Virus record (IMG/VR): IMGVR_UViG_3300028048_001599 | Reading direction: 5' to 3' (one strand) | DNA length: 64,000 nt | DNA from: a virus | Taxonomy: Duplodnaviria > Heunggongvirae > Uroviricota > Caudoviricetes | Part shown: one piece after another, positions 1 to 64,000 of the stretch | Layout: each line of letters begins with the position of its first letter | Position numbering within the stretch: the first letter of the stretch is position 1 | Notes under the pieces: generated by a model | Told to the model about the DNA's origin: nothing | What the model saw: only the letters and a program-made list of their open reading frames with translations | The model's database searches: none | Made by a program: the position numbers and the translations under genes

Positions 1-191
1 TAAACGAGGTTAATTCTCTAATCACTTTTTAAATTTATAAATCACTTTTAAGTCTTAAACGAGGTTAATTCTCTAATCACTTTTTAAATTTATAAATCAC
101 TTTTAAGTCTTAAACGAGGTTAATTCTCTAATCACTTTTTAAATTTATAAATCACTTTTAAGTCTTAAACGAGGTTAATTCTATAATCACT
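1..191. repeat. 55-bp tandem repeat array (3 identical copies + 1 partial; cut by the window start)
   Basis: Unit TAAACGAGGTTAATTCTCTAATCACTTTTTAAATTTATAAATCACTTTTAAGTCT starts at 1, 56 and 111, with a partial copy at 166. No spacers. Followed by about 550 bp of very AT-rich non-coding DNA. Confidence 0.95.
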
Positions 192-763
192 ATCATTATT
201 CAGTTTGAACAAGTTTTAGGCTGTTAATATGTTTACATAATAACAAATTTGGTGTAGTATATCAAATTATAGATAATTTTGATTGTGTATAGTTGTAAAT
301 AAGTAACAATTGATTATTAATATAGATATGAATTATTTATTATTTATAAGTTGTAATTTATTAATAACTTGATTTAGTACCTTTTTATCAATGAATAGTG
401 AAAAAATGGTTAATTTCTTATTTGTATAAGCAAAGAATAGGGGTATTGATAGTTTAATAAACTTATTATTTCAGGTATAATAACATTTTATGTATTATTC
501 TTATATGAAGAAAAATAATGGTACATTAAGTGTCTTACTTGAATTTTAAGTAAATAATCTGTGATATAGAAATTTTCTGTCTGTGATATTTTCAGCACTT
601 AAGGCTCGATTTCGGTCTGTGAATAATAGCTGTGAAATTATATTTTAATTTTATCTCTCTTAAATGGTAAAAAGTCAGATTTAATCAAAAAATCCTTAAG
701 GATAAAATCGGGGAAAAAGGGTCAAAATTGAGTCAAGTAAAGTTCTGAAGTGAAAATTAGCTA

Positions 764-792
764 TTGACAAAGTTCGGAAAATCTGTTAAAAT
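764..792 (+). promoter_or_regulatory. sigma70/sigmaA-type promoter
   Basis: TTGACA-17bp-TAAAAT upstream of the RBS (AAAGGTG) of ORF 827. Confidence 0.75.
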
Positions 793-826
793 AATATTGT
801 AAATCTGTGAAAGGTGTGGTTATCTC

Positions 827-1507
827 ATGAAAACCTCATATTTTAAACGACTTATGGTTTTATCAAATACCATATCCGAAAGAGTATCTATTGAAAAAGA
901 AGGTACTAAAGAATATAATCGTTGGTTTGAATGTCAGCGTGTTTTGTCATCTGTGATTAAGTATGCTTTAAACAGTGGTAAGGGTTCGCTTAATACCAAA
1001 ATAACGGTATTTTGGGAGTGTGGCTGTGATTATACTGAGGCTTTGGAGCGTCTTGACGTGTCCTATGAAGTACTCAGGGCTTGTTTAGCTCGTGCAAGTA
1101 GAAAGCTATACAATGAACTGGGGGTAAATGTCCTTGACTTTATATCAGATGGAAAACCTGTTGATGCTCATATTGAATTTATGGTAAAAACAGGTCAACT
1201 TCTATTGGATGATGTAATACCTACTGAGGTTGTTTCACTTCTTCCTGTTCCTGCATTTCATTCAATTATAAATATTGAAGAATGTACTGAAGAATTGAAG
1301 TTGTTGAAGGCACTAACATTGGTTTCATTAAAACAATCTATTCAGAATGTAAACCCAAACAAATTAGCTCATCTGTTGGCAATTCTCGGAGGCGATGGTG
1401 ACTATTCAAGTATTGTTGTAAAAAAGAAATTGTGGGGGTACTTAATAGGAAAAGATGAATTGAAACAAACAATGAACGACCTAAAAGTAAAAAATCTCAT
1501 ACAATGA
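827..1507 (+). CDS. hypothetical protein with a possible sigma-region-4-like HTH
   Basis: 226-aa ORF with RBS. Segment YTEALERLDVSYEVLRACLARASRKL resembles a sigma70 r4/HTH pattern. Confidence 0.5.
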   Translation: MKTSYFKRLMVLSNTISERVSIEKEGTKEYNRWFECQRVLSSVIKYALNSGKGSLNTKITVFWECGCDYTEALERLDVSYEVLRACLARASRKLYNELGVNVLDFISDGKPVDAHIEFMVKTGQLLLDDVIPTEVVSLLPVPAFHSIINIEECTEELKLLKALTLVSLKQSIQNVNPNKLAHLLAILGGDGDYSSIVVKKKLWGYLIGKDELKQTMNDLKVKNLIQ

Positions 1508-1529
1508 TGGATAAAATTATAACAAGGTA

Positions 1530-1602: not shown

Positions 1603-2808
1603 ATGAACGTATCTGAGATTTTGGAAATTGTAACAGGAAAGAAAATCACACGGCTTGAAACTGGCTCAGAGTGTGAACTTGTAGGTGAAATTGCTTTTGC
1701 TCTTGGTGAAGTGTCAAGTGAAAGTGTTGAAGTTGATGTAGAGGTGGACAATAAGATTTCTGATATATACATTAACCGTATGCTTGACCTCGGTGCAAAG
1801 TGGGGTGATAGAAAGGCATCTTATTATAATTCAGCATTTTTCATGGTAAAGAATAATCGTAATTTCAACTCGCTTGTTATAAGGAAAACAGTCACGGATT
1901 GGACGTTTGATAGAAACGATTCAGTGTTTAAGAATACAATCCTTGACCATAGTGGGGGTTGTGGATACATTCCGCTTGTGGCTTCATTTATTGTTACTAA
2001 GTTTCTTACAGGAACAAAGGGCGTTCTTCATCTTGTAAGCAAAACCATTCCTGATACTTATAAAAACCTTTTTGTTCTTATGTTTTACGGTAATAAGATT
2101 ATTGAGGACATTGTTGAAATAGAGAACGTGTCAGTTCAGCAGGCTGAATGGTTCGCTTATATCACAACTCAGCGTCAGTACGGTAGAATGTTATCATCTG
2201 TTGATAGTGTCACAAAGTACAATTGGCTTAAGGAGAATGACATCAGAAATGGTGATATTCTTCTCCTTTATAAAGTTGGTAAAAATCAGGATAAAACAAA
2301 ACGTGAGTTGATTTCTTGTTATATTGCAAGAGTAGATAGTTACAATCAGTTTGGTATGTCATTCTATGTTATTTCTTCCATTGAAACAGTGTTAACTCAG
2401 GTTCATCGTGTAAGTGTTGCAAATTTCAGGGATAAATCTATTGAGGACTATACTCAGTTTAATGCAAGACAACAAACAATTCAGTTTACTTCACTCGGTG
2501 TGGATTATCTTACATATGATGAAGAATATATGATAATGAAACCATCAACAGACGATGGTTCTGTTCAACTTATGGTGATGCCTGATGACAAGGGTGGTTG
2601 GGATATACAGAAGGTAGAAATGGATACTCTTGAAACAATATACGCTGTCATGGAAAATAGGGGTGTTCGTTTCAATAAAGAACGTTTCTTAGAAATGTAT
2701 TTCACTCCGAGGGGTGTTGTCCCTATCTATGAAAAATATAGAGACCATCAGCCGACTGAATACGAGGATATGACCAAGGCTGAAATTTTGGCAAAATATG
2801 GGGGTTAA
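1603..2808 (+). CDS. hypothetical protein (overlaps the helicase start)
   Basis: 401-aa ORF with RBS AAAGGGGG. No motif recognised. Confidence 0.8.
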   Translation: MNVSEILEIVTGKKITRLETGSECELVGEIAFALGEVSSESVEVDVEVDNKISDIYINRMLDLGAKWGDRKASYYNSAFFMVKNNRNFNSLVIRKTVTDWTFDRNDSVFKNTILDHSGGCGYIPLVASFIVTKFLTGTKGVLHLVSKTIPDTYKNLFVLMFYGNKIIEDIVEIENVSVQQAEWFAYITTQRQYGRMLSSVDSVTKYNWLKENDIRNGDILLLYKVGKNQDKTKRELISCYIARVDSYNQFGMSFYVISSIETVLTQVHRVSVANFRDKSIEDYTQFNARQQTIQFTSLGVDYLTYDEEYMIMKPSTDDGSVQLMVMPDDKGGWDIQKVEMDTLETIYAVMENRGVRFNKERFLEMYFTPRGVVPIYEKYRDHQPTEYEDMTKAEILAKYGG

Positions 2809-4861
2809 TAGTTATATGTTAGATACAATGTTAAATGCTGTAAATAACATAGGTGGTCTTAATAATAGACCACCTGATGTAACAATAGACAAAGACTCTG
2901 AGTTTTTTGATAAACTCAAAAAGGCAAATATAAACCTTGAGGAATTGGGTTGTATCTTGAAAGAAACCGATAACTCCTTGATTATATCATGTGCAGGGTC
3001 AGGTAAAACAACGGCTCTCATTCTTAAAATCATTTATGACTTGTATACAGGATTAAGTTATAAGGTTGTAGAAATTCCCTCAGCTTCAGGGGTAAATTCG
3101 GTAAGAGTACCCGCAAATATTCTTGTAACTACATTCTTAAAAAGTGGAGCGGAGGACTTGAAAAAGTCATTCAATAGTTGGCTTCAACGGTTAAATATAA
3201 CGGGTATAGATACTTCTAAGATTGTATTCAGAACAATGCACTCTGAGGTATATCAAGCTCTTAAGTCAATGGGTGTTGAAATTTCTATTGTAACCGATAA
3301 TACAAAGTATATCCGTGCCTCAATGAAGTCGTTCGGGGTACGTTCTGTTATGTCAAAATCACGTCAGATAACGGTTGACGAGGTTAGGGATATTGAATGT
3401 ATTTTGGCTTATGCAAGAAACAGATTGGATAATAAAAAGTATTCTCACCCATTGATGACTGATTACAACATGGATGAAACGGTACTCAAGTATATGCTAA
3501 GCGATACCAAAAATCAAAGGCGAGAAGAAGGGGTAATGGATTATGAAGACCTTCAGGAATTGCTTCTTGACGCTTTGAAAAAGAATCCAGCTGTTCAGTC
3601 TGTTATAAAACAGAGATATGATTTTATTTACTGTGATGAGTTTCAAGACACATCTCAGTTGCAATACGCACTTCTGCAATATTACTTTGACGCTGCAAAA
3701 AGAGTTATATGTATAGGTGATGATGACCAATGTATCTACTCATGGCGTGGTTCGGACATCAATATAATCACAAATTATTTTATAGATGATTATACTCCAA
3801 ATGTATATAATTTATCAACAAATTATCGTTGTAAATCAACAATTCTCGATGCTGTTATTCCCTCAATCATTAAAAATGAAAACAGGGCTAAAAAGGAGAT
3901 AAAAGCAGCAAAAGATGGGGGTACATTGAATGTCCTGATTAACCACACGGTATCTGAATTGATTAGGTCGGTTCAGAATGATGTTTACAATGGAAAGTCA
4001 GTTGGTATTATTTCAAGAACAAATAATGACTTGTTAATTCCTGCACTTATTCTTGAGTTAGGTGGTGGAATAGATTATTGTGTATCAAAGCAACTCAATG
4101 TTAGGGGTAGATTACCGAGGTTTGTGTTCGGGTGTATAGAGCTTTTAACCAAACGATACTCAGACTACTTTGAAGACTACTTTAAACAGGTTTTATCGTT
4201 CGGTAATAAATCTGAAGCAAACTTGTTGTGTGATATATTGAAAAATAATCAGAATTTATCTATCTTCAGTATAAATAGTGAAGACCTTGAGGCTTCCGTT
4301 CCAAATCTTTATTACTCTTTGTTAGAACCTTTAAGGTCATATAGAAAAGGTGCTGATGGTGATAGGGCAGCTTATGACGTGTTGTTGTTTATTATGCGAG
4401 ACTCTTTCAGGGGTACATCAGCATACGCTAAAAAAGCTCACGACTTATTTGATTATACTATTGACCTTATCCATTCTGAACTGTGTCAAGATTTATCATT
4501 ATATGAATTAGATACATTGTTTAATTCAACAATACCTTCTCATTTGGATACAAGAACAACAAGAAATAATGCACTTGTAAAACTTACAACAGTACATGAA
4601 GCAAAAGGTAAAGAATGGGATAGTGTTTATATCTGGAACGATAACGATGGGGTATTTCCTGCTCAGGTAGGTCAACGTGCATTGTCACAGGATGAGTACG
4701 AGGAGGAGCGTCGTATTCATTACATAGCTTGGACACGTGCGAAAGAAAAGTTAACTGTGTATGCTACTCAGGGTACAATGAGTCCATTTCTTGAAGAATG
4801 TGAGATAGAGCCTGATATAGCCGAATATAAAGTACGACAAACATTTAGAATGAATGGTTGA
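2798..4861 (+). CDS. UvrD/PcrA/Rep-family SF1 DNA helicase
   Basis: Motifs AGSGKTT, DEFQD, GDDDQCIYSWRG, NYR, TVHEAKGKEW and EEERRIHYIAWTRAK. Confidence 0.95.
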   Translation: MGVNSYMLDTMLNAVNNIGGLNNRPPDVTIDKDSEFFDKLKKANINLEELGCILKETDNSLIISCAGSGKTTALILKIIYDLYTGLSYKVVEIPSASGVNSVRVPANILVTTFLKSGAEDLKKSFNSWLQRLNITGIDTSKIVFRTMHSEVYQALKSMGVEISIVTDNTKYIRASMKSFGVRSVMSKSRQITVDEVRDIECILAYARNRLDNKKYSHPLMTDYNMDETVLKYMLSDTKNQRREEGVMDYEDLQELLLDALKKNPAVQSVIKQRYDFIYCDEFQDTSQLQYALLQYYFDAAKRVICIGDDDQCIYSWRGSDINIITNYFIDDYTPNVYNLSTNYRCKSTILDAVIPSIIKNENRAKKEIKAAKDGGTLNVLINHTVSELIRSVQNDVYNGKSVGIISRTNNDLLIPALILELGGGIDYCVSKQLNVRGRLPRFVFGCIELLTKRYSDYFEDYFKQVLSFGNKSEANLLCDILKNNQNLSIFSINSEDLEASVPNLYYSLLEPLRSYRKGADGDRAAYDVLLFIMRDSFRGTSAYAKKAHDLFDYTIDLIHSELCQDLSLYELDTLFNSTIPSHLDTRTTRNNALVKLTTVHEAKGKEWDSVYIWNDNDGVFPAQVGQRALSQDEYEEERRIHYIAWTRAKEKLTVYATQGTMSPFLEECEIEPDIAEYKVRQTFRMNG

Positions 4862-4867
4862 TTCTTG

Positions 4868-9112: not shown

Positions 9113-9116
9113 GTTC

Positions 9117-10233: not shown

Positions 10234-10455
10234 ATGGATTATTCATTGGAAGTACAGCAATTATTCAGTAAAACCTTTAATATAAACCCAGAACTACTCC
10301 CCGTTTTACTAACAAGATTAGAGCAAGCAGCTACCAAAGCTAAGATTTCTAAGTGGTCTGAAATTTTGTTTTCAAATAACATCGACCAAATAGAGGGTGT
10401 ATTTGAAGAAATGCGATATTACTATGGTATAGAGGTAGATAAACTTGAGAAATAA
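10234..10455 (+). CDS. hypothetical protein
   Basis: 73 aa, RBS GGGGG. Confidence 0.6.
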   Translation: MDYSLEVQQLFSKTFNINPELLPVLLTRLEQAATKAKISKWSEILFSNNIDQIEGVFEEMRYYYGIEVDKLEK

Positions 10456-11290
10456 ATCAATTGAAATAAATATGTTGAATGAAACATTAAAGGCATTTAA
10501 TGACGGATGTTATAGAGCTGGTAACAAATCAGTCAAGACATCCGCCATTGATATATTAAGTGATGTAACGGTTATTTTGCCTGATGATTTGGATAAATTG
10601 GCAGACATCGACCCCGTTATTACATCGAATCATTGTAAACTTGATTGTCAGAATGTAGACACGTTTTCAATGGTAAGAATATTAAAAAGCAAGGGGGTAA
10701 CCAATATAATTGCTCTTAACCTTGCAAGTCCGGTCAATCCGGGTGGCGGTGTTCGTAAGGGTGCTAAGGCTCAGGAGGAGGACTTATGTAGAAAGAGTTC
10801 ACTACTTTTTTCCCTTGAATCACAGGTAGCTAAGGTCTATTATGACTATAATAGAAAAGCTAATACATTCATGGGAACAAGTGCAATGATGGTTACTCCA
10901 AAGGTTGAAATTATACGTGACGATAATGGCAAGTTTTTACCAGAGCCTGTAGAAACTTCTGTTTTAACCTGTGCAGCACCTAAGTTAGTTAAGGGTGAAA
11001 AACTCAATATGAAGAATTACCGTTCATTGGTCTATAACCGTATTGGTTATATGTTAACGGTTCTTGCACATCAGGGTTTCAAAAACTTGGTTCTTGGGGC
11101 ATGGGGTTGTGGTGCATACGGAAATGACGCTGCTATCATATCAGACTTGTTTAAAGCTTCAATAGTAAACTTCAAATATAAGGGGTACTCTTATAACGAA
11201 GTTTTTGATTCAATCACATTTGCTGTTCTTGATAAAACCGATTCACAGTATAATTTCAAGCAGTTTAAGCGTAATTTCAGGGAAAAGTAG
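10445..11290 (+). CDS. TIGR02452/DUF2263 family bacterial-type poly(ADP-ribose) glycohydrolase (macrodomain)
   Basis: Motifs LNLASPVNPGGG...AQEEDLCR, TCAAP and LVLGAWGCGAYGN. Confidence 0.9.
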   Translation: MRNKSIEINMLNETLKAFNDGCYRAGNKSVKTSAIDILSDVTVILPDDLDKLADIDPVITSNHCKLDCQNVDTFSMVRILKSKGVTNIIALNLASPVNPGGGVRKGAKAQEEDLCRKSSLLFSLESQVAKVYYDYNRKANTFMGTSAMMVTPKVEIIRDDNGKFLPEPVETSVLTCAAPKLVKGEKLNMKNYRSLVYNRIGYMLTVLAHQGFKNLVLGAWGCGAYGNDAAIISDLFKASIVNFKYKGYSYNEVFDSITFAVLDKTDSQYNFKQFKRNFREK

Positions 11291-15723: not shown

Positions 15724-16965
15724 ATGAAAAAAATAATAGCGATAGTAAGTGCAATAGCAATGTCAATGTCAATAGTGGCTGGTAGTGCTACAAGTGTAAG
15801 TGCAACGTCAGGTTCTACGGGTGTCGGTATGTCGGCTCACGCATTGAAGGCATACAATGAGAATTGGCAATACGTGTATGGTAGTGCAACAACAGGATAT
15901 GTTGATTGTTCAGGACTAATATGTACATATAATGGGGTAGGTGGCAACCGAGTTGATATGTTAGGTAGTTCATCGGAGTGGGGTTATGTAAGAAATGGTA
16001 TTCCACGTATACATGGTCTTGGACTTCATCAACCTGGACATGTTGGTGTCTACATTGGTTCTAACACGGCTATTGATGCACGTGGTACTGGTTATAATTG
16101 TGTAATGCACAATCCGTATAATAAGTCATGGGTCGAATGGTTCAAGATAGCAGGGGTAGCATACCCGAATACAGGTTGGGTTCTGTTTGATAACAAAGCT
16201 TTCTATTATGAAGACGGTCAGTATATAGTAGATACATCAAGGGAATTAGATGGGGTAACCTATAATTTTGATAGTTTAGGCAGGTCAGATGTACTACCAC
16301 CTGAGGATGTGTATACACAGACAGATTATTCAAACGTAACAATTAATCAACCTACGGTTTCATATGCACCACAACCTGTTTCTACTGAGGGGCAAGCACA
16401 AATAGACGCAGAAAACAGGGCTGCTGAACAGCGAAGGGTTGAGGAAAAAAGAAAAGAGGAAGCACGTAAAAAGAAAGAAGCTGAACGCAAAAAGAAAGAA
16501 GCTGAACGTAAAAAGAAAGAAGCTGAACGTAAAAAGAAAGAAGCTGAACGCAAAAAGAAAGAAGCTGAACGTAAAAAGCGTCGTCAAGAGGCTATAAATA
16601 AACGTTTAAAATTTGAGAAATCGAAATATTGTAACATAGGTAGTACAGGACTTCTTGTAGTTGAATATCAAGAACTTCTTAAAAAGTACGGTTATTATAA
16701 GGGCGAGATAACCGGGTATTTCGATGAATCTACATCTCAGGCTTTATCAGACTTTGCAAAAAATAACAAATTAATGGCTGTTGGTATCGGTGATGAGGGG
16801 ATTTATAATACCCTTAAGTCAACATATGTAGAAACAAAGCCAATTACCTTTGAACCAATGCCTGGTGTTGCAATTGAACAAAAAACAAGGTTACAGTCAG
16901 ATGGAAAGATTGTACCTATAGAAAATAGTTTTATGTTTATTGATTCAACTATCACTTATAAGTAA
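15724..16965 (+). CDS. secreted NlpC/P60-like cell-wall hydrolase with a charged coiled-coil and a peptidoglycan-binding domain
   Basis: Signal peptide; YVYG...DCSGL...GHVGVYIG catalytic Cys/His; GST G.V.EYQELLKKYGYY.GEITGYF PG_binding_1-like segment. Confidence 0.85.
   Translation: MKKIIAIVSAIAMSMSIVAGSATSVSATSGSTGVGMSAHALKAYNENWQYVYGSATTGYVDCSGLICTYNGVGGNRVDMLGSSSEWGYVRNGIPRIHGLGLHQPGHVGVYIGSNTAIDARGTGYNCVMHNPYNKSWVEWFKIAGVAYPNTGWVLFDNKAFYYEDGQYIVDTSRELDGVTYNFDSLGRSDVLPPEDVYTQTDYSNVTINQPTVSYAPQPVSTEGQAQIDAENRAAEQRRVEEKRKEEARKKKEAERKKKEAERKKKEAERKKKEAERKKKEAERKKRRQEAINKRLKFEKSKYCNIGSTGLLVVEYQELLKKYGYYKGEITGYFDESTSQALSDFAKNNKLMAVGIGDEGIYNTLKSTYVETKPITFEPMPGVAIEQKTRLQSDGKIVPIENSFMFIDSTITYK
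16468..16578 (+). repeat. 21-bp coding tandem repeat (KKKEAER x5)
   Basis: AAAAAGAAAGAAGCTGAACGY repeated five times. Confidence 0.95.
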
Positions 16966-17118
16966 ATATTACTCAAATATCTACTAAAAAATTTAATATT
17001 ATAGTGAGAAATTTTTTACATACGTTAAAATTTTAGTGTGAAAAATTGAAAGCTATGGATTCTTAAGGTGGCAAAATATAGAAATATAGTTTGCCACTTT
17101 TTACTTAGAGGTGATATT

Positions 17119-17316
17119 ATGAAACATGAAGTAACAAAGGGGGATATGTGTAAAGCAGTAAGAGGTAACTTATTATCTTCCTACATATCAATTTTATTAT
17201 GTCAACAAAAAGGTGATATAACGGAAAAACAGTTTCTCACCGATTTAGCTATTGGAAGTTCTCCTATGTATTCATTAGCAAAGGATATGGTTCAGTATAA
17301 TATTAAAAAATATTAA
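17119..17316 (+). pseudogene. 5' part of a gene interrupted by IS607
   Basis: RBS GAGGTG plus ATG at 17119. The frame joins ORF 19309..19776 when the IS is removed at an AT dinucleotide. Confidence 0.7.
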
Positions 17317-17401
17317 AATCAATATAAATTTTATAATAAATTTTATTTAAAATCAGTACTTTTTATTATAATATATAAAGAAAATTAGTGGGGGTTTTAA
17401 T

Positions 17402-18004
17402 ATGAAGGCTAGTGAAGTGTTGCAGTTATTAAAAATTACAAGACCTACATTAACAAAATATGTTAAAGAGGGGAAAATTAAAGTGACTGTGAAAGGTAAT
17501 GGGCAATATGATTATGATGTAGACAGTGTATATAAGATGTTAAATAAAGATATAGAACGAAAGACATATTTATATGCACGTGTATCAACGGTAAAACAGA
17601 AAAAAGATTTAGAGAATCAGATACAGTTGTTAAAAAATTATTGTTTTCAGAATGGATTACAAATAAATGGAATATACACTGATATAGCAAGTGGTATAAG
17701 TTTTGAAAAGCGTAAAGATTTCTTTACAATGCTCGATGATATTATAGCAGGTAAAGTAAAAAAAGTGGTAATAACATATAAAGATAGATTATCACGTGTA
17801 GGGTTTGAGTTATTTAGTTATTTATTTAAGAAATACGGGTGTGAAATAATTGTTGTATCAGAGGTAGGTTCAGAGAAACTTGATAGTGAGGAAATATTTG
17901 AGGAAATTGTGAGTTTACTTCATTGTTATTCTATGAAGCTTTATAGTAAGAGAAAAGGACAGAAAATTAAGTCGGTGCTTGATGAAAAGGATGATAACAC
18001 ATGA
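17402..18004 (+). CDS. tnpA: IS607 transposase (MerR-type HTH + serine recombinase)
   Basis: N-terminal HTH; YARVST, QKKDLENQ, DIASG, DRLSRVGF. Confidence 0.95.
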   Translation: MKASEVLQLLKITRPTLTKYVKEGKIKVTVKGNGQYDYDVDSVYKMLNKDIERKTYLYARVSTVKQKKDLENQIQLLKNYCFQNGLQINGIYTDIASGISFEKRKDFFTMLDDIIAGKVKKVVITYKDRLSRVGFELFSYLFKKYGCEIIVVSEVGSEKLDSEEIFEEIVSLLHCYSMKLYSKRKGQKIKSVLDEKDDNT

Positions 18005-19230
18005 TTGTAACAAGGGTAGAAAAGCATGTTTTAAAGCAGAATAATGTGTTTTATTCTTTAATTGATAACTTTTGTTTCAAAGCAAAGAATTTATATAATC
18101 ATGCTAATTATATTGTACGTCAAGCATTTTGTAGTGAGAATAATTGGGTGAGATATAGGGATTTAGATTTAATACTTAAGAATGATATTGAATATCCAGA
18201 CTATAGGGAAATGCCTACTGCACAGTCAGCACAGCAAATACTGAGATTGTTGGATAAGAATTGGAGTTCATTTTTTAAAGCAATAAAAGATTGGGGTATG
18301 CACAAAGATAAATATTTAGGTAAACCTAAACTTCCAAAGTATAAATCTAAAAATGGTAGAGAAATACTAATATTGACAAATCAAAATGTAAAGTTAAAAG
18401 ATGATATATTAAAGTTTCCAAAAACATTTAAAGGTTTTAATATTACACCTAGATTTATAAAGCGTACAGATTTTGTATCATTTCAACAAGTTAGGTTTTT
18501 ATCAAGAAATAAACATATAATTATAGAACTTGTTTATAACATAGAGGTTCCGAATACAGTGAAGTCTAATGGAAGATATTTAAGTATTGATATAGGTGTA
18601 GATAACTTAGTAGCCATGACAAACAATTTTAACAAAGCACCAGTTCTCATAAATGGCAAGGGTCTAAAATCTATAAATCAATACTATAATAAAAAATTAG
18701 CATATTATAAATCAATAACAAAGGTAATGAACAAAAAGGACTATTCTAATAGACAAAATAAACTTACTATGAAAAGAAATGATAAAATACTTGATTACAT
18801 ACATAAAGCTAGTAGGTATGTAGTTAATTATGCTAAGAAGACTGATGTGTCAGTTATTGTAATAGGTTACAATAAGGAGTGGAAGCAAAACAGTGTAATG
18901 TGTAAACAAGTAAATCAGACTTTTATTCAAATACCATTTAGTAAATTAATAAATCAAATAAAATACAAAGCTGAAGAGTTTGGTATTGAAGTAATTTTAA
19001 CTGAAGAAAGTTATACATCTGGTACGTCATTTTTAGATAATGAACAACCTATAAAAGAATACTACAATAAAAGTAGAAGAATATATAGGGGTTTGTTCAA
19101 GACAAAAAGTGGGGTAGTAATAAATTCTGATGTAAATGGTGCATTTCAGATAATGAAGAAAGTATTTCCAAATGCTTATGCAGATGGAATAGAGGGTTTA
19201 GTGTTTAACCCAGTCAAAGTAAGTGTGTAA
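18001..19230 (+). CDS. tnpB: IS607-type TnpB RNA-guided endonuclease
   Basis: RuvC motifs LSIDIGV, EESYTS (the repositioned Glu typical of IS607 TnpB) and INSDVNGA. Confidence 0.93.
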   Translation: MIVTRVEKHVLKQNNVFYSLIDNFCFKAKNLYNHANYIVRQAFCSENNWVRYRDLDLILKNDIEYPDYREMPTAQSAQQILRLLDKNWSSFFKAIKDWGMHKDKYLGKPKLPKYKSKNGREILILTNQNVKLKDDILKFPKTFKGFNITPRFIKRTDFVSFQQVRFLSRNKHIIIELVYNIEVPNTVKSNGRYLSIDIGVDNLVAMTNNFNKAPVLINGKGLKSINQYYNKKLAYYKSITKVMNKKDYSNRQNKLTMKRNDKILDYIHKASRYVVNYAKKTDVSVIVIGYNKEWKQNSVMCKQVNQTFIQIPFSKLINQIKYKAEEFGIEVILTEESYTSGTSFLDNEQPIKEYYNKSRRIYRGLFKTKSGVVINSDVNGAFQIMKKVFPNAYADGIEGLVFNPVKVSV

Positions 19231-21884: not shown

Positions 21885-23333
21885 ATGGTTTTCAGTGGTA
21901 CTGATTTTGCGAAGTCAATTATAGAACAGGGTTCAAATTTCTTGGTATATGGCGACCCTGATATTGACGGAATGATTGCAGCATACTTGGTATGTGCTTA
22001 TCTAAGAAAACGTGGAATAACTTTTAATTATTATATTAACTCAAATCGTAAGCATGGGTTTACTTTGCCTTTGGATAAAGTAAGGGGTAAAACCATAATT
22101 GCGGTTGATTTTTCTATGTCCGAAAAAGAACTTGAGGATGTAGTCAATATTGGTGCTAACATAGTATTAATAGACCACCATCATATTGATAGTACTCAAC
22201 TTGTAATAAAGGACAATGGCAAGAATAGGGGTATTATAATAAATAATCAATACACGTTTGAAGATAAGGCATACCGTTTTTTAAGTGGAGCAGGTGTTGT
22301 GTACTATGTGTTGGGGTATATGGAACCTACGATGTTTTCTGAGGACAACAAGGCATTAGTAGGTATATCCTTATTGTCTGATATTCGTGAAATTGAAAAT
22401 GATATAGCACAAGATTTCTTGAAAACGACTTATGTAGCAAATACACCTATGATAAATAGACTAATTGCTATAACAAAACCTGAATATTCTTTTAGTTTTG
22501 GTGCTGTTAAGATGGACAGACAATTTATTGATTATACATTTTCTCCACGTTTTAATGCTATGTTCAGAGCCAACAAAGGTTATGAAGCCTTTGAATACAT
22601 GCTTGGAAAACCGCTTGAACGTAAGTTCGTAGAAGAATGTCGAGATTTTCAGAATACTATGGTTCAATACATATTGGACAATCTTAAAGGTAAAGAATAC
22701 TCAGCTTTAATTTGTAAATACATTGAGCATAAAAACATGTCAGATGTAATTCTTGAAACTGATTCAAACCCCATGTTTCATGATGCGGAGTTATCTAACT
22801 TTATTGGTTTAGTAGCATCAAGGATAAAAGGAAAAAAGAGTTCTATAGTATACATTAAGAATGGTGACGACATAGAGCGTGGCTCATTCAGGGGTAGCGG
22901 AGACCATGACTATTTACATCTATTTAGAGACCTTGGTGGTTTAGCAAATGGTCACAGAAACGCATTTGGCTTTCATTGTATGATATCTGCTACATTTGAT
23001 GAATTTAATGACATCTTGTATGGTATATCATTATATAATGATAATTCAAACCGTATTGTTGAAGCAAGTAACTTATCAACAATAGTAAACACAACTAATA
23101 TTGACTTAGCTACATTGAATATATTTAGACGTTCGTCCAATCAGATATTTGTTAAGTATATAGGTTCTAAGGATAACTGTATTGCAACCGAGCGAGGTAA
23201 ATTAATCGAGTGGCGGATAGATGGGGTACTTGTAAAAAGCTTTGATGCTGATTTAAAACCGTGGAAGGATTTCATTTTGCCATATAAAGACAAGGGGTAT
23301 ACAGTGTTCTACCTTAAAAAAGATATTAATTGA
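21885..23333 (+). CDS. RecJ-like DHH/DHHA1 single-stranded DNA exonuclease
   Basis: Motifs VYGDPDIDG, R.HG, AVDF, IDHH, LSGAGV, SD, RGSFR and GH..AFG. Confidence 0.9.
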   Translation: MVFSGTDFAKSIIEQGSNFLVYGDPDIDGMIAAYLVCAYLRKRGITFNYYINSNRKHGFTLPLDKVRGKTIIAVDFSMSEKELEDVVNIGANIVLIDHHHIDSTQLVIKDNGKNRGIIINNQYTFEDKAYRFLSGAGVVYYVLGYMEPTMFSEDNKALVGISLLSDIREIENDIAQDFLKTTYVANTPMINRLIAITKPEYSFSFGAVKMDRQFIDYTFSPRFNAMFRANKGYEAFEYMLGKPLERKFVEECRDFQNTMVQYILDNLKGKEYSALICKYIEHKNMSDVILETDSNPMFHDAELSNFIGLVASRIKGKKSSIVYIKNGDDIERGSFRGSGDHDYLHLFRDLGGLANGHRNAFGFHCMISATFDEFNDILYGISLYNDNSNRIVEASNLSTIVNTTNIDLATLNIFRRSSNQIFVKYIGSKDNCIATERGKLIEWRIDGVLVKSFDADLKPWKDFILPYKDKGYTVFYLKKDIN

Positions 23334-25291: not shown

Positions 25292-25296
25292 TATAA

Positions 25297-26778: not shown

Positions 26779-26781
26779 CCT

Positions 26782-27780: not shown

Positions 27781-27791
27781 GGAGGGGTATC

Positions 27792-28751: not shown

Positions 28752-28855
28752 GCTTACACGAGTTGAATTTGCAAATTATAAAAATTGCCCCTTTTTATGT
28801 TGCAAATTTAGCTCTTTACTATAATCAGCTCTTTATAGAAGGAGGTGTGGGGGCG

Positions 28856-29104: not shown

Positions 29105-29130
29105 TAAATCTGTGTAACAGCAAACCCAAA

Positions 29131-29158
29131 GGGGTGTGTACCATAGGTACACACCCCC
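29131..29158 (+). terminator. terminator/stabilising hairpin after the pilin gene
   Basis: GGGGTGTGTACC-ATA-GGTACACACCCC perfect stem. Confidence 0.8.
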
Positions 29159-29250
29159 GTTACATTTTATAGGTATTATATATTTTTATTGAAAAAATAT
29201 ATACTAATGTATATAATATTATAGAGATTAAAATAGTGTGGTGAAATAAC

Positions 29251-29487: not shown

Positions 29488-29500
29488 GGAGGGGTAAGAC

Positions 29501-45110: not shown

Positions 45111-45530
45111 TTAGATTACAATAACAAATTCTCTGGTATTGACATTATACCCTAATTTGTAGTCTGTATTGTGGTCGGAGTTGTACTTGTCGAGTAACTC
45201 AAAGATTGGGTGAATTTTAGCTGTACTGGTATTTGATTTCTGTGTTGATAAAATAATCGTTTCAATAACAGGGGTATCTACGTCGTTTATAACCCATGTT
45301 CTATCAAGACATACGATATTTAATACTTCCTGTCCATCTTCAACAATTGTCTGAATTGGGAGGACATTGCACTTAGTCGTTGCTACTTTTTTATCCTGTA
45401 GCACATTGTAAAGTTTTGCTCTGTTAATAAGATAGTTGTCGATGTTATTGTCATACTCGTTTTCGTGACAAATAACAAAGATATTAGGCTCAGTAAGGGG
45501 GTATAGACTTTTGTTCTTAGTGTTTGACAT
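45111..45530 (-). CDS. hypothetical protein
   Basis: 139 aa, RBS AAAGGAG, TTTACA-17-TATACT promoter on the minus strand, and a terminator. Confidence 0.8.
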   Translation of the reverse strand: MSNTKNKSLYPLTEPNIFVICHENEYDNNIDNYLINRAKLYNVLQDKKVATTKCNVLPIQTIVEDGQEVLNIVCLDRTWVINDVDTPVIETIILSTQKSNTSTAKIHPIFELLDKYNSDHNTDYKLGYNVNTREFVIVI

Positions 45531-48898: not shown

Positions 48899-49112
48899 TA
48901 CATAAAGTATAGTCACATGGTGCATATTTTAATACTGAGAGTGTTTGTACCTATGGGTTTTGTAAAGGAAGTATTGATTAAGTTTATATTTTTCACATCG
49001 TCATAAATAGGTCTACGGCTCGATTTAAGGCATTTTTAGTTGTCGTGTCAAGTTCCTCATTTAAGGGCGAAAAATGGTTCAGAAAGGTTTACAGCGAAGG
49101 AGAGAGTGGTTT

Positions 49113-50126
49113 ATGAATTATATGGATAAAATCAGCGGTCAGGAATATAATTTTCTTAGAGAGAATAAACATTTAGGTGATAGAATCGGGATGTTGTGTG
49201 TTTCAGGTAGTTACGGTTATGGTACAAACATAGATGGTTCAGACTTAGATTTGAGGGGTTTCGCACTTCCAACCGAACGTGACATCATTCTTGGTAACGA
49301 CTTTGGTCAGGTAGAGGATAGGACTACTGACACAGTAATTTACTCATTCGATAAAATAGTTCACTTATTATCCGAATGTAACCCAAATGTCATTGAGTTA
49401 CTTGGTTTACCTCCAGCGAACTACCTCATTTGTAATAAAATAGGTATGATGTTAAATGCTCACAGCAGCATGTTCCTATCAAAACTTGCAGTGAACACAT
49501 TTGGTGGTTATGCAAACCAACAACTTCGTAGGATTCAGAACAAGTCTGCAAAGAAGATAACACAGGAGGATTTTGAGAATTACATCTTGCAAACAATAAG
49601 ACATTCAGAGTTTAATTACAAGGAGAAGTACGGTATAGACCTTGTAAACAAAATCAAGGTTTACATTGACAAATCTAAAAAAGAGAATTTAGACGTGGAG
49701 TTATTTTTAGATTTTGACATAGAGCACATGCCATTACGTGACGTCACTTCTTTTGTTTCAGATATGAACAACATAATCAAAATGTATAACAAAACAGGCG
49801 GACGTAATAACAATGCTATAGTGCACGATAAATTAGGTAAGCACATGATGCATCTTGTTCGTTTGTATTATACTTGCTTTGATATACTTGAAAAAGGTAA
49901 AATAATAACATACAGACCCGAACGTGAAGAATTATTAAAAATAAGGAACGGGTTATATTTAGACGGTGACACTCCAAAGCCCGAATTTACCGAATTTGTA
50001 AATAAACTAGAAGCACGCCTCACTTATGCTAAGGAAAACACAGATTTACCCGATAAACCTGACATGAATAAAATTAATGACTTTAAGTATTCAGTATACA
50101 AGCAAATAATAAACGATATAGGCTAA
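49113..50126 (+). CDS. Pol-beta-superfamily nucleotidyltransferase (Nuc-transf/YcgL-like)
   Basis: SGSYGYGTN..GSDLDLRG, NPNVIELL, GYA..Q and KHMMHLVRL. Confidence 0.88.
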   Translation: MNYMDKISGQEYNFLRENKHLGDRIGMLCVSGSYGYGTNIDGSDLDLRGFALPTERDIILGNDFGQVEDRTTDTVIYSFDKIVHLLSECNPNVIELLGLPPANYLICNKIGMMLNAHSSMFLSKLAVNTFGGYANQQLRRIQNKSAKKITQEDFENYILQTIRHSEFNYKEKYGIDLVNKIKVYIDKSKKENLDVELFLDFDIEHMPLRDVTSFVSDMNNIIKMYNKTGGRNNNAIVHDKLGKHMMHLVRLYYTCFDILEKGKIITYRPEREELLKIRNGLYLDGDTPKPEFTEFVNKLEARLTYAKENTDLPDKPDMNKINDFKYSVYKQIINDIG

Positions 50127-56876: not shown

Positions 56877-56995
56877 ATTTAGAAACTAATACATTTGTAG
56901 TTCGCATAAAAGGGGTATTATGGCCTTAGCATTATTGATTACATTATTGATAGTATTAATACATAGAATAAAAAAGAGCTATTTTTAACCTAAAT

Positions 56996-58318
56996 GGGCA
57001 AGAAGTCCTCCACCTCTTAGGTGGAGGGATGAGTTGCTCGTCAGCCGCAAGGCTGACTTTTAGTTGACTTATGATTCCGTTTATGTTATCTTTGAGATAA
57101 AGAGGTGAGAGCAACATGAACAAAGCCTACAAATTCAGGATATACCCTAATGAAGAACAAAGAATACTGATAGCAAAGACATTTGGTTGTGTCAGATTTA
57201 TCTACAATAAGATGTTGGGTGACAAGATAGAATACTATCATCAGACACAGAAAAAACTGAATAATACTCCTGCACAGTATAAAACCGAATTTGAGTGGCT
57301 GAAAGAAGTAGATAGTCTTGCCCTTGCCAATGCGCAGATGAATTTGCAGGATGCATATAATAACTTTTTCCGAGATAAGAAAGTGGGTTTCCCTAAGTTC
57401 AAATCAAAAAAAGGCAGTAAAAGAAGTTATACAACTAATTGGGTAAATGGTAATATCATTGTTCGGGATGGTATGATAAGACTTCCGAAATTAGGTTTTG
57501 TCAAAATGAAACAACACAGAAACATACCCGATGATTACAAACTGAAATCTGTTACTGTAAGTCAGAACGCAGGCGGTAAATATTTCGCAAGTATTCTTTT
57601 TGAGTATGAAGAAGAAATCACAGAGAAAAAACTTGAAAGTTTTATCGGTCTGGATTTTTCTATGCACGAATTGTATGTTGACAGCAACGGTAATTGTCCA
57701 CAGTTTCCGAGATATTACAGATTATCCGAAAAGAAACTCAAAAAAGAACAAAGAAAGCTGTCGAAAATGGTGAAAGGTTCAAGAAACAGAGAAAAACAGC
57801 GTATCAAAGTTGCTAAACTGCATGAAAAGGTTGCCAACCAAAGAAAGGATTTTCTGCACAAGCAGTCAAGACAGATAGCCAATGTTTATGATTGTGTGTA
57901 TATTGAAAATCTGAATATGCGGGCTATGGCACAGTCACTGAATTTCGGTAAATCCGTTTCGGACAACGGTTGGGGAATGTTTACGGCATTTCTGAAATAC
58001 AAGTTAGAGGAACTCGGAAAAAGACTTGTAAAAATAGATAAGTTTTTTGCAAGTTCACAGATTTGCAGCGTATGCGGATATCAAAATCCCGATACAAAAA
58101 ATTTGTCTGTCAGAGAATGGATTTGTCCTTACTGTCAAACAAATCATAACAGAGATATAAACGCTGCTATAAACATACGAAATGAAGGTATGAGAATAGT
58201 ATTAGCGTAAAAAACAAAACAAGAACCGTGGGACACACGGGGTTAGCTCGTTGATACTGTATGGGTTACCATACTTGAGCGAGAAGCCCACACCTCTATA
58301 GGTGGGGGAGTATGTCAC
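56996..58318 (+). mobile_element. IS200/IS605-family (IS1341-like, tnpB-only) element
   Basis: Left-end hairpin CTCCACCTCTTAGGTGGAG and right-end hairpin CACCTCTATAGGTG ending ...TGTCAC. No tnpA. Left boundary approximate. Confidence 0.85.
57116..58210 (+). CDS. tnpB: IS605-type TnpB RNA-guided endonuclease
   Basis: AYKFRIYP, TFGCVRFIYN, GLDF, IENL, CSVC...CPYC and RDINAAINI; the catalytic D/E/D residues are intact. Confidence 0.95.
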   Translation: MNKAYKFRIYPNEEQRILIAKTFGCVRFIYNKMLGDKIEYYHQTQKKLNNTPAQYKTEFEWLKEVDSLALANAQMNLQDAYNNFFRDKKVGFPKFKSKKGSKRSYTTNWVNGNIIVRDGMIRLPKLGFVKMKQHRNIPDDYKLKSVTVSQNAGGKYFASILFEYEEEITEKKLESFIGLDFSMHELYVDSNGNCPQFPRYYRLSEKKLKKEQRKLSKMVKGSRNREKQRIKVAKLHEKVANQRKDFLHKQSRQIANVYDCVYIENLNMRAMAQSLNFGKSVSDNGWGMFTAFLKYKLEELGKRLVKIDKFFASSQICSVCGYQNPDTKNLSVREWICPYCQTNHNRDINAAINIRNEGMRIVLA

Positions 58319-58338
58319 TTCAAATGACATCGACAGAT
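58215..58338 (+). ncRNA. putative omegaRNA of the IS605 TnpB (guide approximately TTCAAATGACATCGACAGAT)
   Basis: CCGTG/CACGG and GCTCG/CGAG stems plus the terminal hairpin after tnpB; guide inferred 3' of TCAC. Confidence 0.65.
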
Positions 58339-58543
58339 CAACTCCTTAGGTGGCGATATTATGTTTATTAGAAGGTTTAGAGATTGGATAAAAGTTCAGA
58401 AGGTAAGAAAGCGCCATTATCATTAAGAATAATAGGTACAATTTTATGTATAATACAGTGATGTAAGTAGTTTGAGGGCATTCTTTTCTAAGTAATTTTC
58501 ATAAATCATGATTATCAGTATATATTTCATTGGGGGTGTAATA

Positions 58544-58867
58544 ATGAAGGAGTTTATAATGAAGCATTTAAATAGTATAGCAGACAAACTTATATTATTT
58601 TGTGAACATTGTGAATCAAGAGATAAAGCAAGGTCAGAATCCAAAACAAGAGCATGGTGTAGACAGCATAGAATTGGGGTAGTTATTGCATTACAATTGT
58701 TTAAACTCTGCATACTTATAAGCTGCATAGACATATTATTTTTACCGATTTCTTTTAGTATAAGACTTATAATATTATCATTTTACGGAATACTGGGAAT
58801 ATATGCAGCATACAGAGCAGAGAATGTAATAAACGATGTGAAAAACATAAAAACGAATAGGAAATAA
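58544..58867 (+). CDS. membrane protein
   Basis: ATG at 58544 after GGGGGTG; two C-terminal TMs. Confidence 0.6.
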   Translation: MKEFIMKHLNSIADKLILFCEHCESRDKARSESKTRAWCRQHRIGVVIALQLFKLCILISCIDILFLPISFSIRLIILSFYGILGIYAAYRAENVINDVKNIKTNRK

Positions 58868-60870: not shown

Positions 60871-61305
60871 TTAAAATTATAAATTAAATAAGACTATAAT
60901 AGATGCTATGTATAATAAAATACATATTGAGCAAGTAATTAACCTTCGTTTATAAAATTGTCTATCTTCATTTGAGAATACTGTTATATAAGATTTAAGA
61001 TTTTTTATAAATATTACTATACTTAATGTACTGGTGATTTATTTGTAGTATTACCATTAATAGTAATAACATATGGGGTAGTAGGCTTATTATATTATAG
61101 TAGACATAAAACATATGGGGATAAAAAATAACTACTTTGAGGTGATATTTATGAATGTAAGAAAAGCGATAGATATAGTCAAGGCATTATACAAGTTCGG
61201 GGTAATACCGATGACATTGTTTATATTAGGGATATCACCATTTTCCGATTGTAGCATTGTTTAATTGTAGTATTGAGGACTTAATAGGGGAAATGAGGTA
61301 ATACT

Positions 61306-61569
61306 ATGAAACATAAAGAAAACATAGATTTAGTATTGCAGACTGTAGCTAATGATATGACATGTGAGTTAATTAATGATATACTAAATTATTACAATTG
61401 TACATTTGATGATGTTGATAGACTTTTCAGGAAAATGGACTACTGGAAGGTTATAAATGATGATAAAGTTATGTGTGTTATGGCACACGACTATAATTTT
61501 GAAAGATTTAGGAAGGACTTGGAAAGGATAGGTGCTATAAATGAACTTATATCACGGGACAATCTATAA
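61306..61569 (+). CDS. small helical protein (DUF3791-like partner of DUF3990)
   Basis: 87 aa, RBS GAGG; overlaps the start of the DUF3990-like ORF. Confidence 0.5.
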   Translation: MKHKENIDLVLQTVANDMTCELINDILNYYNCTFDDVDRLFRKMDYWKVINDDKVMCVMAHDYNFERFRKDLERIGAINELISRDNL

Positions 61570-61696
61570 ATTCAAACAGTTTGACATAGGGTTCGCAGAG
61601 GAATACAAGGATTTTGGGCTTGGTATGTATTTAGCTACTCAGTTAGGACATGCTAGGTGGTATGCGAATCGCATGGGAGTTACGTTTGGAATATGA
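61541..61696 (+). pseudogene. truncated DUF3990-like (ADP-ribosyltransferase fold) gene
   Basis: Hand translation MNLYHGT...KDFGLGMYLAT...ARWYA stops after 51 aa. Confidence 0.7.
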
Positions 61697-61917
61697 CCAT
61701 AGCCCTAAGTGGTTCATGTCGCCGTTTGATATGTAATCACTGCATAACCAATCAAACAAATCAAAGAACGAGCCATCAACAATAACATTGGTGGCTCTTC
61801 TTTATTACATCAAAATCAAATCAGGTACTATGTTCTATAATATATAAATGAATAATGGGATAATTTTGTCATCGTATAGCATTATTCATAAATTGAAACA
61901 AAGAAAGGGGCAACAAA

Positions 61918-63768
61918 ATGATAAAGTTAAAACAGACAATCACAGCTTGTCTACTATCGGCAATATTGGTATCTGCTATTGCCCTACCTGCATTTGCAGT
62001 GGACGAATCAGTAGACCAAACTCCGGTGGTAGTTGACGAGCAAGTAGAGAAAAACAGTGATACAGGGGGTACACAGGACAGTGAGGTTCCTGTTGATACA
62101 CCCGCAGACGAACCGGTAGATACGCCTGCTGACGAACCCACAGACGAGCCAACAGATAAATCTGTTGACGAATCTTCACAAACATCAGAAAAATCAGAAA
62201 TATCTGTAGTTTCCGATACACCTACAGATGAATCTGAAGACACATCGTCAACACCCGAATCAAAGCAGGAATCACAGGAAGAGGACAGCAAGGAAGAATC
62301 TGAGGTTTCAGAGGAATCCTCAAAACAAGAGATAAATACAGGTGAACAACTAATCTATTTTTACATAGATTTAGGCGGTGAATACGGAAAATGTTCATGG
62401 AGTAAGGATTTAGGTTATTTAACTTTTGCAAATGTGAAATGTACAGTATATAAGTCTGATGGTAAGACACAAATAGCTTCATTCAAGCTTGAAGATAGGT
62501 TATTTGACAGTACAGTAGACAATCGTTATACAATATCACGAAGCGTAAAGGTTCCTGAATGGAAAAAAGGTACTTATTATATTTTAAGATTTGAGAATCT
62601 ACCTTCGATTTATCCAAGTTCCACACAGGAGATTAAGTTGGTATATAAATCCGATGAAGTAGGTATGCCTTTAGGTACTTCTGAAGAAGATAGTATGTTA
62701 TTAAAGTTGATACCAAATAATTTCAACTCTTTGTTTTATGTATACGATAAAAATGGTACGCCTATTTATAATGCAAAGGTTGATGTCAAGGGTTATGATG
62801 ATGATGGTAATTTAGTTTACTCGAAGTCAACGACATCTAAAAAAGACGGGGTAGCATCTTTATTTATAAATAATTCTGATGTTGGTATCTTAAAAATTTC
62901 TGTACCTTCAATATTAAACAAGTCCGTTGTAACTGGTACAGTTCAAGGATTTTTTAATTTTGCAGCAAATACTTCTGAATATCCTAGTGTTACGGTTTTA
63001 AAGGCTGATGCTAATTATGATGGAAAAATAAGAACTGCTGATGGTACAGTAGTTCAAGAAGGCTGTTCAGTACCATTCACAGTTGAATACAAGTCAGCGA
63101 ATGATATGCTTCTATTTAAGCATACAACAGTAAACGTAAGTCTATATGACAGAACTTCCGCATTTAACAGTATTGTTTTATCACCTGAAAATAAGACAGA
63201 GGAATTTTCCTTAGCCGAGGGTTCAAAATATACTGTAAAGGCACTGAATATTCCTGATTATTCATTGTCAGTTTCACCTACAACATTGACAGTTTCAAAG
63301 AGTGCAAAAGTAACTGTAACAGCAACACCTCAAATGTCATTAAAAGTAATAAATGAAAGGAATGGGGTAAAGAACAATGCACATTTTGAAATTTTAGGTT
63401 ATGGTAAACAATTTAATGAGCAAGCACATGTTTTTTCAGTTAATTATGACCAGGGTTTATCAATTAAAAACCTTGATAACGGTGAAGTATTTGAATTATT
63501 TATAGGTGCATATAAAGAAACAGTACTTAACATAGCTGATTGGACAGTACAGCAAAATGGTTTCATTAAAATAGATTATTCCGAAGACACTCCAAACACA
63601 TCGTCATCTGCTGGTTACACAGATTCAAATGTAATCACAACGGTGCCGAAGACAGGTGATACAATCTTGGGGGTAGGTTTAGCTCTATGTGGTTTAACTA
63701 TTTTGTCTTTCACAGGTTATCAATACTATAAGAGAAAGGGGAAAAAGTACAATGAGAGTAAGAAATAA
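61918..63768 (+). CDS. sortase-anchored surface protein
   Basis: Signal peptide (AFA|V), acidic DTPADEP repeats, beta-rich domains, VPKTG + TM + KRKGKK. Confidence 0.85.
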   Translation: MIKLKQTITACLLSAILVSAIALPAFAVDESVDQTPVVVDEQVEKNSDTGGTQDSEVPVDTPADEPVDTPADEPTDEPTDKSVDESSQTSEKSEISVVSDTPTDESEDTSSTPESKQESQEEDSKEESEVSEESSKQEINTGEQLIYFYIDLGGEYGKCSWSKDLGYLTFANVKCTVYKSDGKTQIASFKLEDRLFDSTVDNRYTISRSVKVPEWKKGTYYILRFENLPSIYPSSTQEIKLVYKSDEVGMPLGTSEEDSMLLKLIPNNFNSLFYVYDKNGTPIYNAKVDVKGYDDDGNLVYSKSTTSKKDGVASLFINNSDVGILKISVPSILNKSVVTGTVQGFFNFAANTSEYPSVTVLKADANYDGKIRTADGTVVQEGCSVPFTVEYKSANDMLLFKHTTVNVSLYDRTSAFNSIVLSPENKTEEFSLAEGSKYTVKALNIPDYSLSVSPTTLTVSKSAKVTVTATPQMSLKVINERNGVKNNAHFEILGYGKQFNEQAHVFSVNYDQGLSIKNLDNGEVFELFIGAYKETVLNIADWTVQQNGFIKIDYSEDTPNTSSSAGYTDSNVITTVPKTGDTILGVGLALCGLTILSFTGYQYYKRKGKKYNESKK

Positions 63769-64000
63769 CATTTTCAAAAGGGTACTTTCATCTATTCTTG
63801 CACTAACAATGATAGTTGCAATAGCACCTATAGACTTGACAGTACTTGCTGCGTCAGGTGGTTCAGGTAATGCAGGATCAAGTTCTGGTGGTGCAGGTAA
63901 ATATTGGTTACAAGATGGTTATGACATAATAAAAATTTCTGTTTCAAAAATAGATGATGATTCATCAATTAAGAATATGACAAGTCTAAACTATAGATAC
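63752..64000 (+). CDS. secreted protein, N-terminus only (runs off the window)
   Basis: MRVRNNIFKRVLSSILALTMIVAIAP...VLA|ASGGSG signal peptide; open to the window end. Confidence 0.7.
   Translation, partial: MRVRNNIFKRVLSSILALTMIVAIAPIDLTVLAASGGSGNAGSSSGGAGKYWLQDGYDIIKISVSKIDDDSSIKNMTSLNYRY

Follow-up and report, generated by a model that had tools for sequence, protein, structure and literature searches.

What does a six-base word signify when it recurs every few hundred bases along one strand of a long DNA? The question is raised by the 64,000-nucleotide stretch of IMG/VR record IMGVR_UViG_3300028048_001599, filed under the Caudoviricetes and here called the window, whose + strand carries 111 copies of GGGGTA (the first at 440, the last at 63670) and whose − strand carries one. 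We find that the word is kept by selection on the gaps between its copies. Its best reading, which we consider probable though well short of assured, is that GGGGTA serves as the recognition or priming site of a primase encoded by giant plasmids of the family of pXO16 from Bacillus thuringiensis, to which the window appears to belong. A first-pass annotation, made from the letters alone, had proposed an element-encoded primase, with a translocase site or a Chi-like site as alternatives. Its hand count of about 110 copies against one is borne out, as are all eight positions that it gave for individual copies and that of the lone TACCCC at 30550.

Selection on gap size on one DNA strand

The features of the window that bear on the word are these:

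440–63675, + strand: 111 GGGGTA sites, on average 575 bp apart and never more than 2041 bp; proposed sites of priming on a putative lagging-strand template
30550–30555, − strand: the sole reverse copy (TACCCC on the + strand), within the chance expectation of 1–2.4
45111–45530, − strand: a probable real gene of 139 aa, with copies at 45271 and 45498 that both lie on the + DNA strand
17402–19230, + strand: IS607-type element (resolvase and TnpB) with two GGGGTA, at 18293 and 19111, where 3.4 are expected
57116–58210, + strand: IS605-type tnpB, with no GGGGTA where 2.6 are expected, inside the gap 56912–58676

Among all hexamers of the window, GGGGTA is both the most strand-skewed and the most over-represented, an order-2 Markov model expecting 22.9 copies. 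As first described, it occurs in several reading frames and between genes: 93 copies lie in + genes (51, 27 and 15 in the three frames), 16 outside the listed genes and two in the minus-strand gene. The enrichment survives when synonymous codons of the + genes are shuffled with the proteins kept, which predicts 19.7 ± 4.0 copies (maximum 33 in 300 shuffles) against 93, and it does so frame by frame (51 against 7.0, 27 against 10.3 and 15 against 2.3). Shuffling codon order predicts 12.3. The synonymous shuffle preserves the proteins; a strict dicodon-preserving null would by construction absorb the frame-0 copies. The scale of the effect is well illustrated by Gly-Val pairs, 51 of 105 being encoded GGG-GTA, while GGG makes up about 10% of other Gly codons. 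Since the one-base neighbours of GGGGTA are at or below expectation and its flanks are nearly information-free, it is a six-base word and not a repeat. Two secondary words are also in excess in the window under synonymous recoding, ACTTGT (44 against 17) and CAGCGG (11 against 2), the latter containing the Bacillus Chi sequence AGCGG.

The rarity of TACCCC carries no signal of its own, because only 1–2.4 copies are expected and a strand-skewed control plasmid gives a similar asymmetry for GGGGTA (134:10) and for a control word (157:10). The early estimate of some ten chance copies per strand thus serves for the + strand but is too high for the − strand. The signal is the excess of GGGGTA and its even spacing, rather than the scarcity of its complement.

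The coefficient of variation (CV) of the spacing in the window is 0.73, where placement at random would give 0.99 (p = 0.0002), and the spacing is the most even among 160 equally common hexamers. Gaps below 100 bp number five where 17 are expected, and the longest gap (16252–18293) runs into the IS607-type element; that of pXO16 is of similar size, 2071 bp. For the window, pXO16 and one small phage (see below) we listed every opportunity, meaning any place where synonymous recoding could make GGGGTA. Around 40% of opportunities are used (479 of 1148 in pXO16, 94 of 220 in the window and 38 of 104 in the phage), and use depends steeply on distance: less than 50 bp from another site the fractions are 0.08, 0.17 and 0.0 for pXO16, window and phage, respectively, while at 400–800 bp they are 0.64, 0.67 and 0.71. 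This shows that selection works on the size of the gaps between GGGGTA sites, on one DNA strand; a neighbouring second site adds little and a long gap is costly. Orthologous genes at 30–50% protein identity have similar numbers of sites at mostly different positions (13 of 42 in common). A polymorphism check on rumen relatives carries no weight either way: of 588 variants 40 were compared with the sites, and none fell inside one, where about 0.5 would be expected.

The excess and the spacing make it very improbable indeed that codon use, G-C skew or repeats produced the word as an artefact. Skew alone can reproduce the strand asymmetry, and among viral sequences a scan for three copies of the pattern returned mostly Pro/Thr repeat genes, the locus L034 being its only true case. 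Neither effect gives a 4.7-fold excess under synonymous recoding, present in all frames without shared flanks, nor under-dispersed spacing or turnover between orthologues. Avoidance of a restriction site was considered and set aside, on the reasoning that it would account for polarity or depletion and not for excess.

A signal acting at the level of RNA, be it a Shine-Dalgarno-like GGGGU, a translational pause or a protein-binding site on mRNA, deserves mention since almost every gene is encoded on one strand. Furthermore, of 167 non-coding copies in pXO16, 104 are closely followed by a possible start codon, so that many may double as ribosome-binding sites. The minus-strand gene of the window speaks to this. 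The open reading frame is preceded by AAAGGAG and has a codon score of 0.12 (+ genes range from 0.08 to 0.29), so it looks real, and one of its copies needs the rare codon CCC. That both copies stay on the + DNA strand, as had been noticed at the outset, speaks for a signal of the DNA strand, though from just two sites. Elsewhere, an 844-aa minus-strand gene of the relative G001 (see below) has one GGGTA and one TACCC, and is uninformative on the question of strand, while apparent minus-strand reading frames of the phage genome G312 proved to be shadows of a + gene. Against an RNA signal, too, GGGGTG is a better match to the anti-Shine-Dalgarno sequence but is not enriched (23 against 37), three in four copies fall within genes, in every frame, and a gene-free 4.4-kb stretch of pXO16 has a normal density, with eight copies. 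An RNA-level role is accordingly far down our list, though marginally ahead of artefact.

The two mobile elements are of mixed behaviour. The word had been reported missing from an IS605 element, which is right for the tnpB at 57116–58210, but there are two IS200/IS605-family elements in the window and the IS607-type one contains two copies.

A pXO16-like giant plasmid and the distribution of the word

The replicon of which the window appears to be part, of about 324 kb, is matched in cattle and sheep rumen samples. Its kinship with pXO16 is indicated by the genes for UvrD, DHH, ParM, the 5′–3′ exonuclease, an adhesin and one further protein, which follow the same order in both, with coding on one strand in both and orthologues 27–36% identical. 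The relevant features are:

1–191, no strand: 55-bp tandem array at the contig end, with a 21-bp array at the syntenic place in pXO16; candidate origin or centromere
827–2808, + strand: two genes of no assigned family (226 and 401 aa), whose syntenic counterparts in pXO16 precede UvrD; weak similarity (pairwise E 2e-5 and 9e-8)
2798–4861, + strand: UvrD/PcrA-type helicase, 36% identical to its pXO16 orthologue; nuclease domain not detected
21885–23333, + strand: DHH-family protein, 31% identical to its pXO16 orthologue; lineage marker
24278–28751, + strand: Tad-like locus (P-loop NTPase, CpaF-like ATPase and two further genes), used to find relatives
32067–33206, + strand: ParM-like actin, its only plasmid matches being the pXO16 copies (27%)
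35654–36610, + strand: stand-alone 5′–3′ exonuclease, candidate primer remover; best plasmid match pXO16 (35.5%)

Searches of the window proteins against a phage collection and viral contigs gave no matches. The window resembles pXO16 in having its genes on one strand and in the identity, density and gap limit of the word; it differs in its rumen origin and in its Tad-like locus, which has no counterpart in pXO16. The Tad-like pilus locus (24278–29971 in the window) separates DHH from ParM in relatives from rumen and gut and is absent from pXO16 and G001. Possible cargo of the window, for counter-defence or repair, includes a microbial PARG-type macrodomain (10445–11290) and an RlaP-like nucleotidyltransferase (49074–50126). 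The pXO16 orthologue of the exonuclease is annotated as a potassium transporter TrkH (L008:10805–11992), an annotation that looks wrong. The 21-bp array of pXO16 (L007:20198–20648) is degenerate, precedes the same three genes (the unassigned pair and UvrD) and lies inside one of the longest GGGGTA gaps; it is a candidate origin or partition site.

In pXO16 itself (NZ_CP009348.1, about 350 kb; L003–L009) every annotated gene is on one strand and G-C skew is positive in every 10-kb bin. GGGGTA occurs 658:5 round the whole circle, at 12–27 copies per 10 kb, on the G-rich coding strand. A flip of polarity at an inversion of the skew, which the first-pass annotation had put forward as a check, is absent, skew and word both running one way round the circle. 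Under the protein-preserving null 96 copies would be expected in genes and 491 are found, and both short gaps and gaps above 2 kb are depleted. A literature search, with most subscription journals and the primary papers on pXO16 outside its coverage, found no description of the GGGGTA word, including for pXO16.

Relatives were sampled by their zinc-finger or CpaF gene. An excess of a G(n)TA word was present in eight of nine further elements, which range from 29 to 57% GC and carry 23–64 copies per 20 kb. The variants differ only in the length of the G-run, which is three, four or five, while the 3′ TA is fixed in all: GGGTA is the form in the complete 225-kb G001 (667:36, a weaker excess) and in L422, and GGGGGTA that in L425 (34 of 36 sites). 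Scans with CpaF across collections of genomes, metagenomes and viruses came back empty or with mostly generic ATPases and served as negative background only; none of these background loci exceeds 0.62 GGGGTA per kb.

The word is not a property of host-type chromosomes, at least among the Firmicutes surveyed. Across 301 Bacillota genomes no GGGGTA excess was found, the ratio to a control word being at most about 1.7 compared with 2.8 in the window, 6.2 in pXO16 and 22 in the small phage G003. A B. cereus-type chromosome has 30 copies where 37.5 are expected, while AGCGG is mildly enriched there, and five other large plasmids, two of them from B. thuringiensis, show no excess.

These results bear directly on the proposal of a Chi-like site, at which a helicase-nuclease, encoded by the host (AddAB/RecBCD type) or by the element, would stop degrading DNA and which plasmids and small phages would hoard. 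The polarity of the word fits, and the element has a UvrD helicase with a partner gene of no assigned family (fold and structure searches with the 401-aa protein gave no match). There is also a precedent in Chi-rich phages such as LLS and MD8, in which a short polar word is over-represented in mobile genomes lacking the corresponding enzyme: Chi accumulates in a single orientation in phages that have no recombination genes (PMC12315714), and no match to RecA was found in the small phages or plasmids considered here. Chi in phage LLS, however, occurs once per 1.9 kb and clusters at one end (PMC12315714). GGGGTA is evenly spread, whereas the spacing of E. coli Chi and of Bacillus AGCGG is random (CVs of 1.02 and 1.00). 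Chi is enriched on the host chromosome and differs between host lineages; GGGGTA shows no chromosomal excess and is the same word in elements of widely different GC content. Nor was a match to an AddB/RecB-type domain (PF12705) or to RecA found in pXO16 or G001. We regard a Chi-like role as unlikely.

Candidate readers of the word

A word with no excess on host chromosomes, the same from host to host and responsive to the length of the gaps, is most simply read by the element's own primase, and the pXO16 family encodes a candidate. A zinc-finger protein (WP_000365721.1) and a TOPRIM protein (WP_000389279.1), encoded 128 kb apart in pXO16, make up a split DnaG-type primase; primase zinc-binding and TOPRIM domains are found in both pXO16 and G001 with catalytic motifs intact. 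The pXO16 TOPRIM protein keeps EGxFD and DxD, although a fold and structure search with it gave no match, and the zinc finger can be aligned to Geobacillus DnaG (1D0Q), the I-F pair ahead of HCFGC matching as well. pXO16 also encodes DnaB (WP_001162832.1), a family-A polymerase (PolA), a ligase, a clamp-loader-like ATPase and an FtsK/SpoIIIE-type ATPase. After the free zinc-finger gene there comes, in every case, a conserved gene of 275–338 aa, between DnaB and ligase (L003:33700–35193; L419–L425), whose product is a candidate third part of the primosome. After the TOPRIM gene comes the gene-free stretch of pXO16 (162887–167323; L006:12887–17323), full of related hairpins, with a 3.3-kb gap at the same place in G001; it may be a non-coding RNA array or an origin.

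The proposed mechanism runs as follows. The family's replisome would comprise DnaB, the primase in its two free parts, the family-A polymerase, ligase and the 5′–3′ exonuclease, all seen in relatives and, by extension, likely for the window's replicon. Because skew is uniform and all genes are on one strand, a single fork probably circles with transcription, which would make the + strand the lagging-strand template. The same strand may also be the one that conjugation displaces. The primase, by analogy with T7 and DnaG, would read 5′-GGGGTA-3′, leave the last A uncopied, start with ATP opposite the T and make pppACCCC, with primers one base shorter or longer in the GGGTA and GGGGGTA lineages. 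A six-base requirement would make sites rare, and hence the genome would be recoded at synonymous positions so as to keep one about every 550 bp and none much beyond 2 kb apart.

How well does this accord with known primases? In T7 the gene 4 protein recognizes (G/T)2GTC and makes primers of the pppACCC type (pppACCC, ACCA and ACAC; PMC12839067). GGGGTA resembles such a site in its G-rich templated part, the T next to last and a last base that is presumably uncopied; likewise, both words are on the + strand of genomes coded one way and go with a replisome of PolA, DnaB-type helicase and 5′–3′ exonuclease, and T7 sites are enriched on the + strand. The family differs in ending its site in A rather than C, in using one strict word of 5–7 bases, in an even spacing and five-fold excess compared with 1.6–2-fold in T7, and in having its primase as two separately encoded proteins where that of T7 is fused to the helicase. 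In DnaG, two zinc-finger residues set the uncopied third base, which is A in the Firmicutes, whose enzyme reads CTA; a His33 mutant of T7 primase primes at GTA (PMC2978363). GGGGTA likewise ends in TA, fixed with its T in all variants, and the element's finger shares fold and I-F pair with that of Geobacillus. It departs from the Firmicute site in having G for C before TA, which breaks the bacterial pyrimidine-pyrimidine-purine rule (PMC2978363) and matches the GTC of T7, and in that the final A persists when the zinc-finger pair changes. DnaG trinucleotide sites, moreover, are abundant and need no recoding of the genome.

Several observations weigh against this interpretation. The primase genes of the window's own replicon lie outside the 64-kb window, so that the enzyme is known from relatives. 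A test for co-variation of the zinc finger with the site was negative, the pairs IF, VF, RF, KF, IY and LY all going with a final A (no F-Y pair was sampled); as the pair varies without change of the last base, and as I-F is common in DnaG generally, the I-F match is weak evidence. T7 as positive control is only 1.6–2-fold enriched for two of its sites (73 against 46 and 38 against 19), and the number of sites is reported to have no bearing on the length of its Okazaki fragments (PMC12839067). Known DnaG sites have three bases and that of T7 five; a precedent for a strict hexamer was not found. Furthermore, the L354–L356 lineage has the same DHH-Tad-ParM module without a G(n)TA excess. It has a small excess of GACCCTA on the + strand (7 against 0.8); an apparent CAGGTA/GTGGTA variant series in L354 vanished under synonymous recoding. 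Finally, the small phages described below share no replication proteins with the plasmids, and their dependence on them is conjectural. These points hold our confidence in the primase at the level given at the start.

The suggestion of a loading site for a translocase, like KOPS or SRS, either for the FtsK-type ATPase of a transfer region or for a packaging motor, has in its favour that the word is G-rich, polar and on the G-rich strand. The FtsK/SpoIIIE-type ATPase of pXO16 is a possible reader, and the plasmid can pass on its 350 kb within minutes, in a manner still unexplained; according to reviews, transfer is single-stranded, there is no known relaxase or oriT, and the replication region is hypothetical (PMC6199540, PMC9673590). 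Single-stranded transfer is itself awkward for this idea. No FtsK-gamma domain (PF09397) was matched in pXO16 or G001, positive controls being recovered, and there is neither a convergence point nor a flip in the 350 kb of pXO16. TACCCC is not significantly avoided (1 against 2.4 and 3 against 5.6 expected), the word is far denser than KOPS or SRS, and the small phages bring a terminase of their own and lack transfer genes. A translocase site is therefore quite improbable, more so than Chi. Both alternatives of the first-pass annotation are thus weakened.

Another DNA-binding protein of the element, placed at regular intervals for nucleoid organisation, helicase reloading, single-strand protection or as a mark of self, would explain an even spacing specific to these elements and its sharing with dependent phages, and most core genes are of no assigned function. 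There is no candidate protein, and the fixed 3′ end, variable G-run and purine-templating T next to last are accounted for by a primase and not by an ordinary duplex binder. We rate this on a par with Chi, as an outside chance. A primase of the element, as first proposed, is hence the best explanation, combining the split primase, DnaB and PolA of relatives with selection on gaps, a fixed TA behind a variable G-run and the lack of a host excess. In its behaviour GGGGTA resembles a T7 or DnaG priming site and fails the features of Chi and KOPS that were tested.

Some further words are unusual in these genomes. GGGTC, a T7-type site one base from GGGGTA, is avoided on the + strand (11 against 115 expected in pXO16, 3 against 79 in G001 and 14 against 28 in the window), while GACCC is not. 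In pXO16, six-A runs are nearly absent (36 against 946 expected), and its 350 kb contain a single GATC.

Small phages with the same word, and implications

The word is also found in complete tailed-phage genomes of 24–30 kb (G003 and G310–G314), which carry 44–58 copies of GGGGTA with a CV of 0.47–0.73, or the GGGTA variant. They encode virion and lysis genes, their own terminase and an HNH-like protein, the latter being their sole conserved non-virion protein and not a replication protein. Among 45 non-virion proteins no replication or recombination family was recognized, and convincing shared DNA between phages and plasmids was not found. One of them, G314 (L417–L418), has GGGTA at 93:2 and GGGTT at 66:9, possibly a relaxed last base, and an excess of CCTTC on both strands.

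These phages may have taken up the word in order to use the plasmid replisome. They would then resemble MiniFlayer and MulchRoom, capsid-encoding satellites without replication genes (PMC10690885), in possessing virion genes and no recognizable replisome. They would differ in that the proposed helper is a conjugative plasmid and not a phage.

What is new here is the gap-dependent use of sites, the G-run series, the split primase and the host controls. As a whole picture, we would tentatively suggest, while thinking it less likely to be right than wrong, that the replisome of the pXO16 family is T7-like and runs one way, with a split primase requiring a word of 5–7 bases, that the family's genomes have been recoded to offer regular priming sites, an Okazaki map written into the sequence, and that widespread virion-encoding phages without replication genes use the same code as satellites of the plasmid replisome.

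The word bears on the question of whether the sequence of priming sites sets the length of Okazaki fragments. In T7 and E. coli, priming sites far outnumber those that are used. A replicon with one strict site per 550 bp or so, and gaps limited near 2 kb, would make the question directly testable, and pXO16, whose replication and transfer are still unexplained, is workable in laboratory strains of B. thuringiensis. The word also serves as a sequence barcode by which this plasmid family can be recognized in rumen, gut and soil, and it may point to a new kind of dependence, in which phages borrow the replisome of a plasmid.

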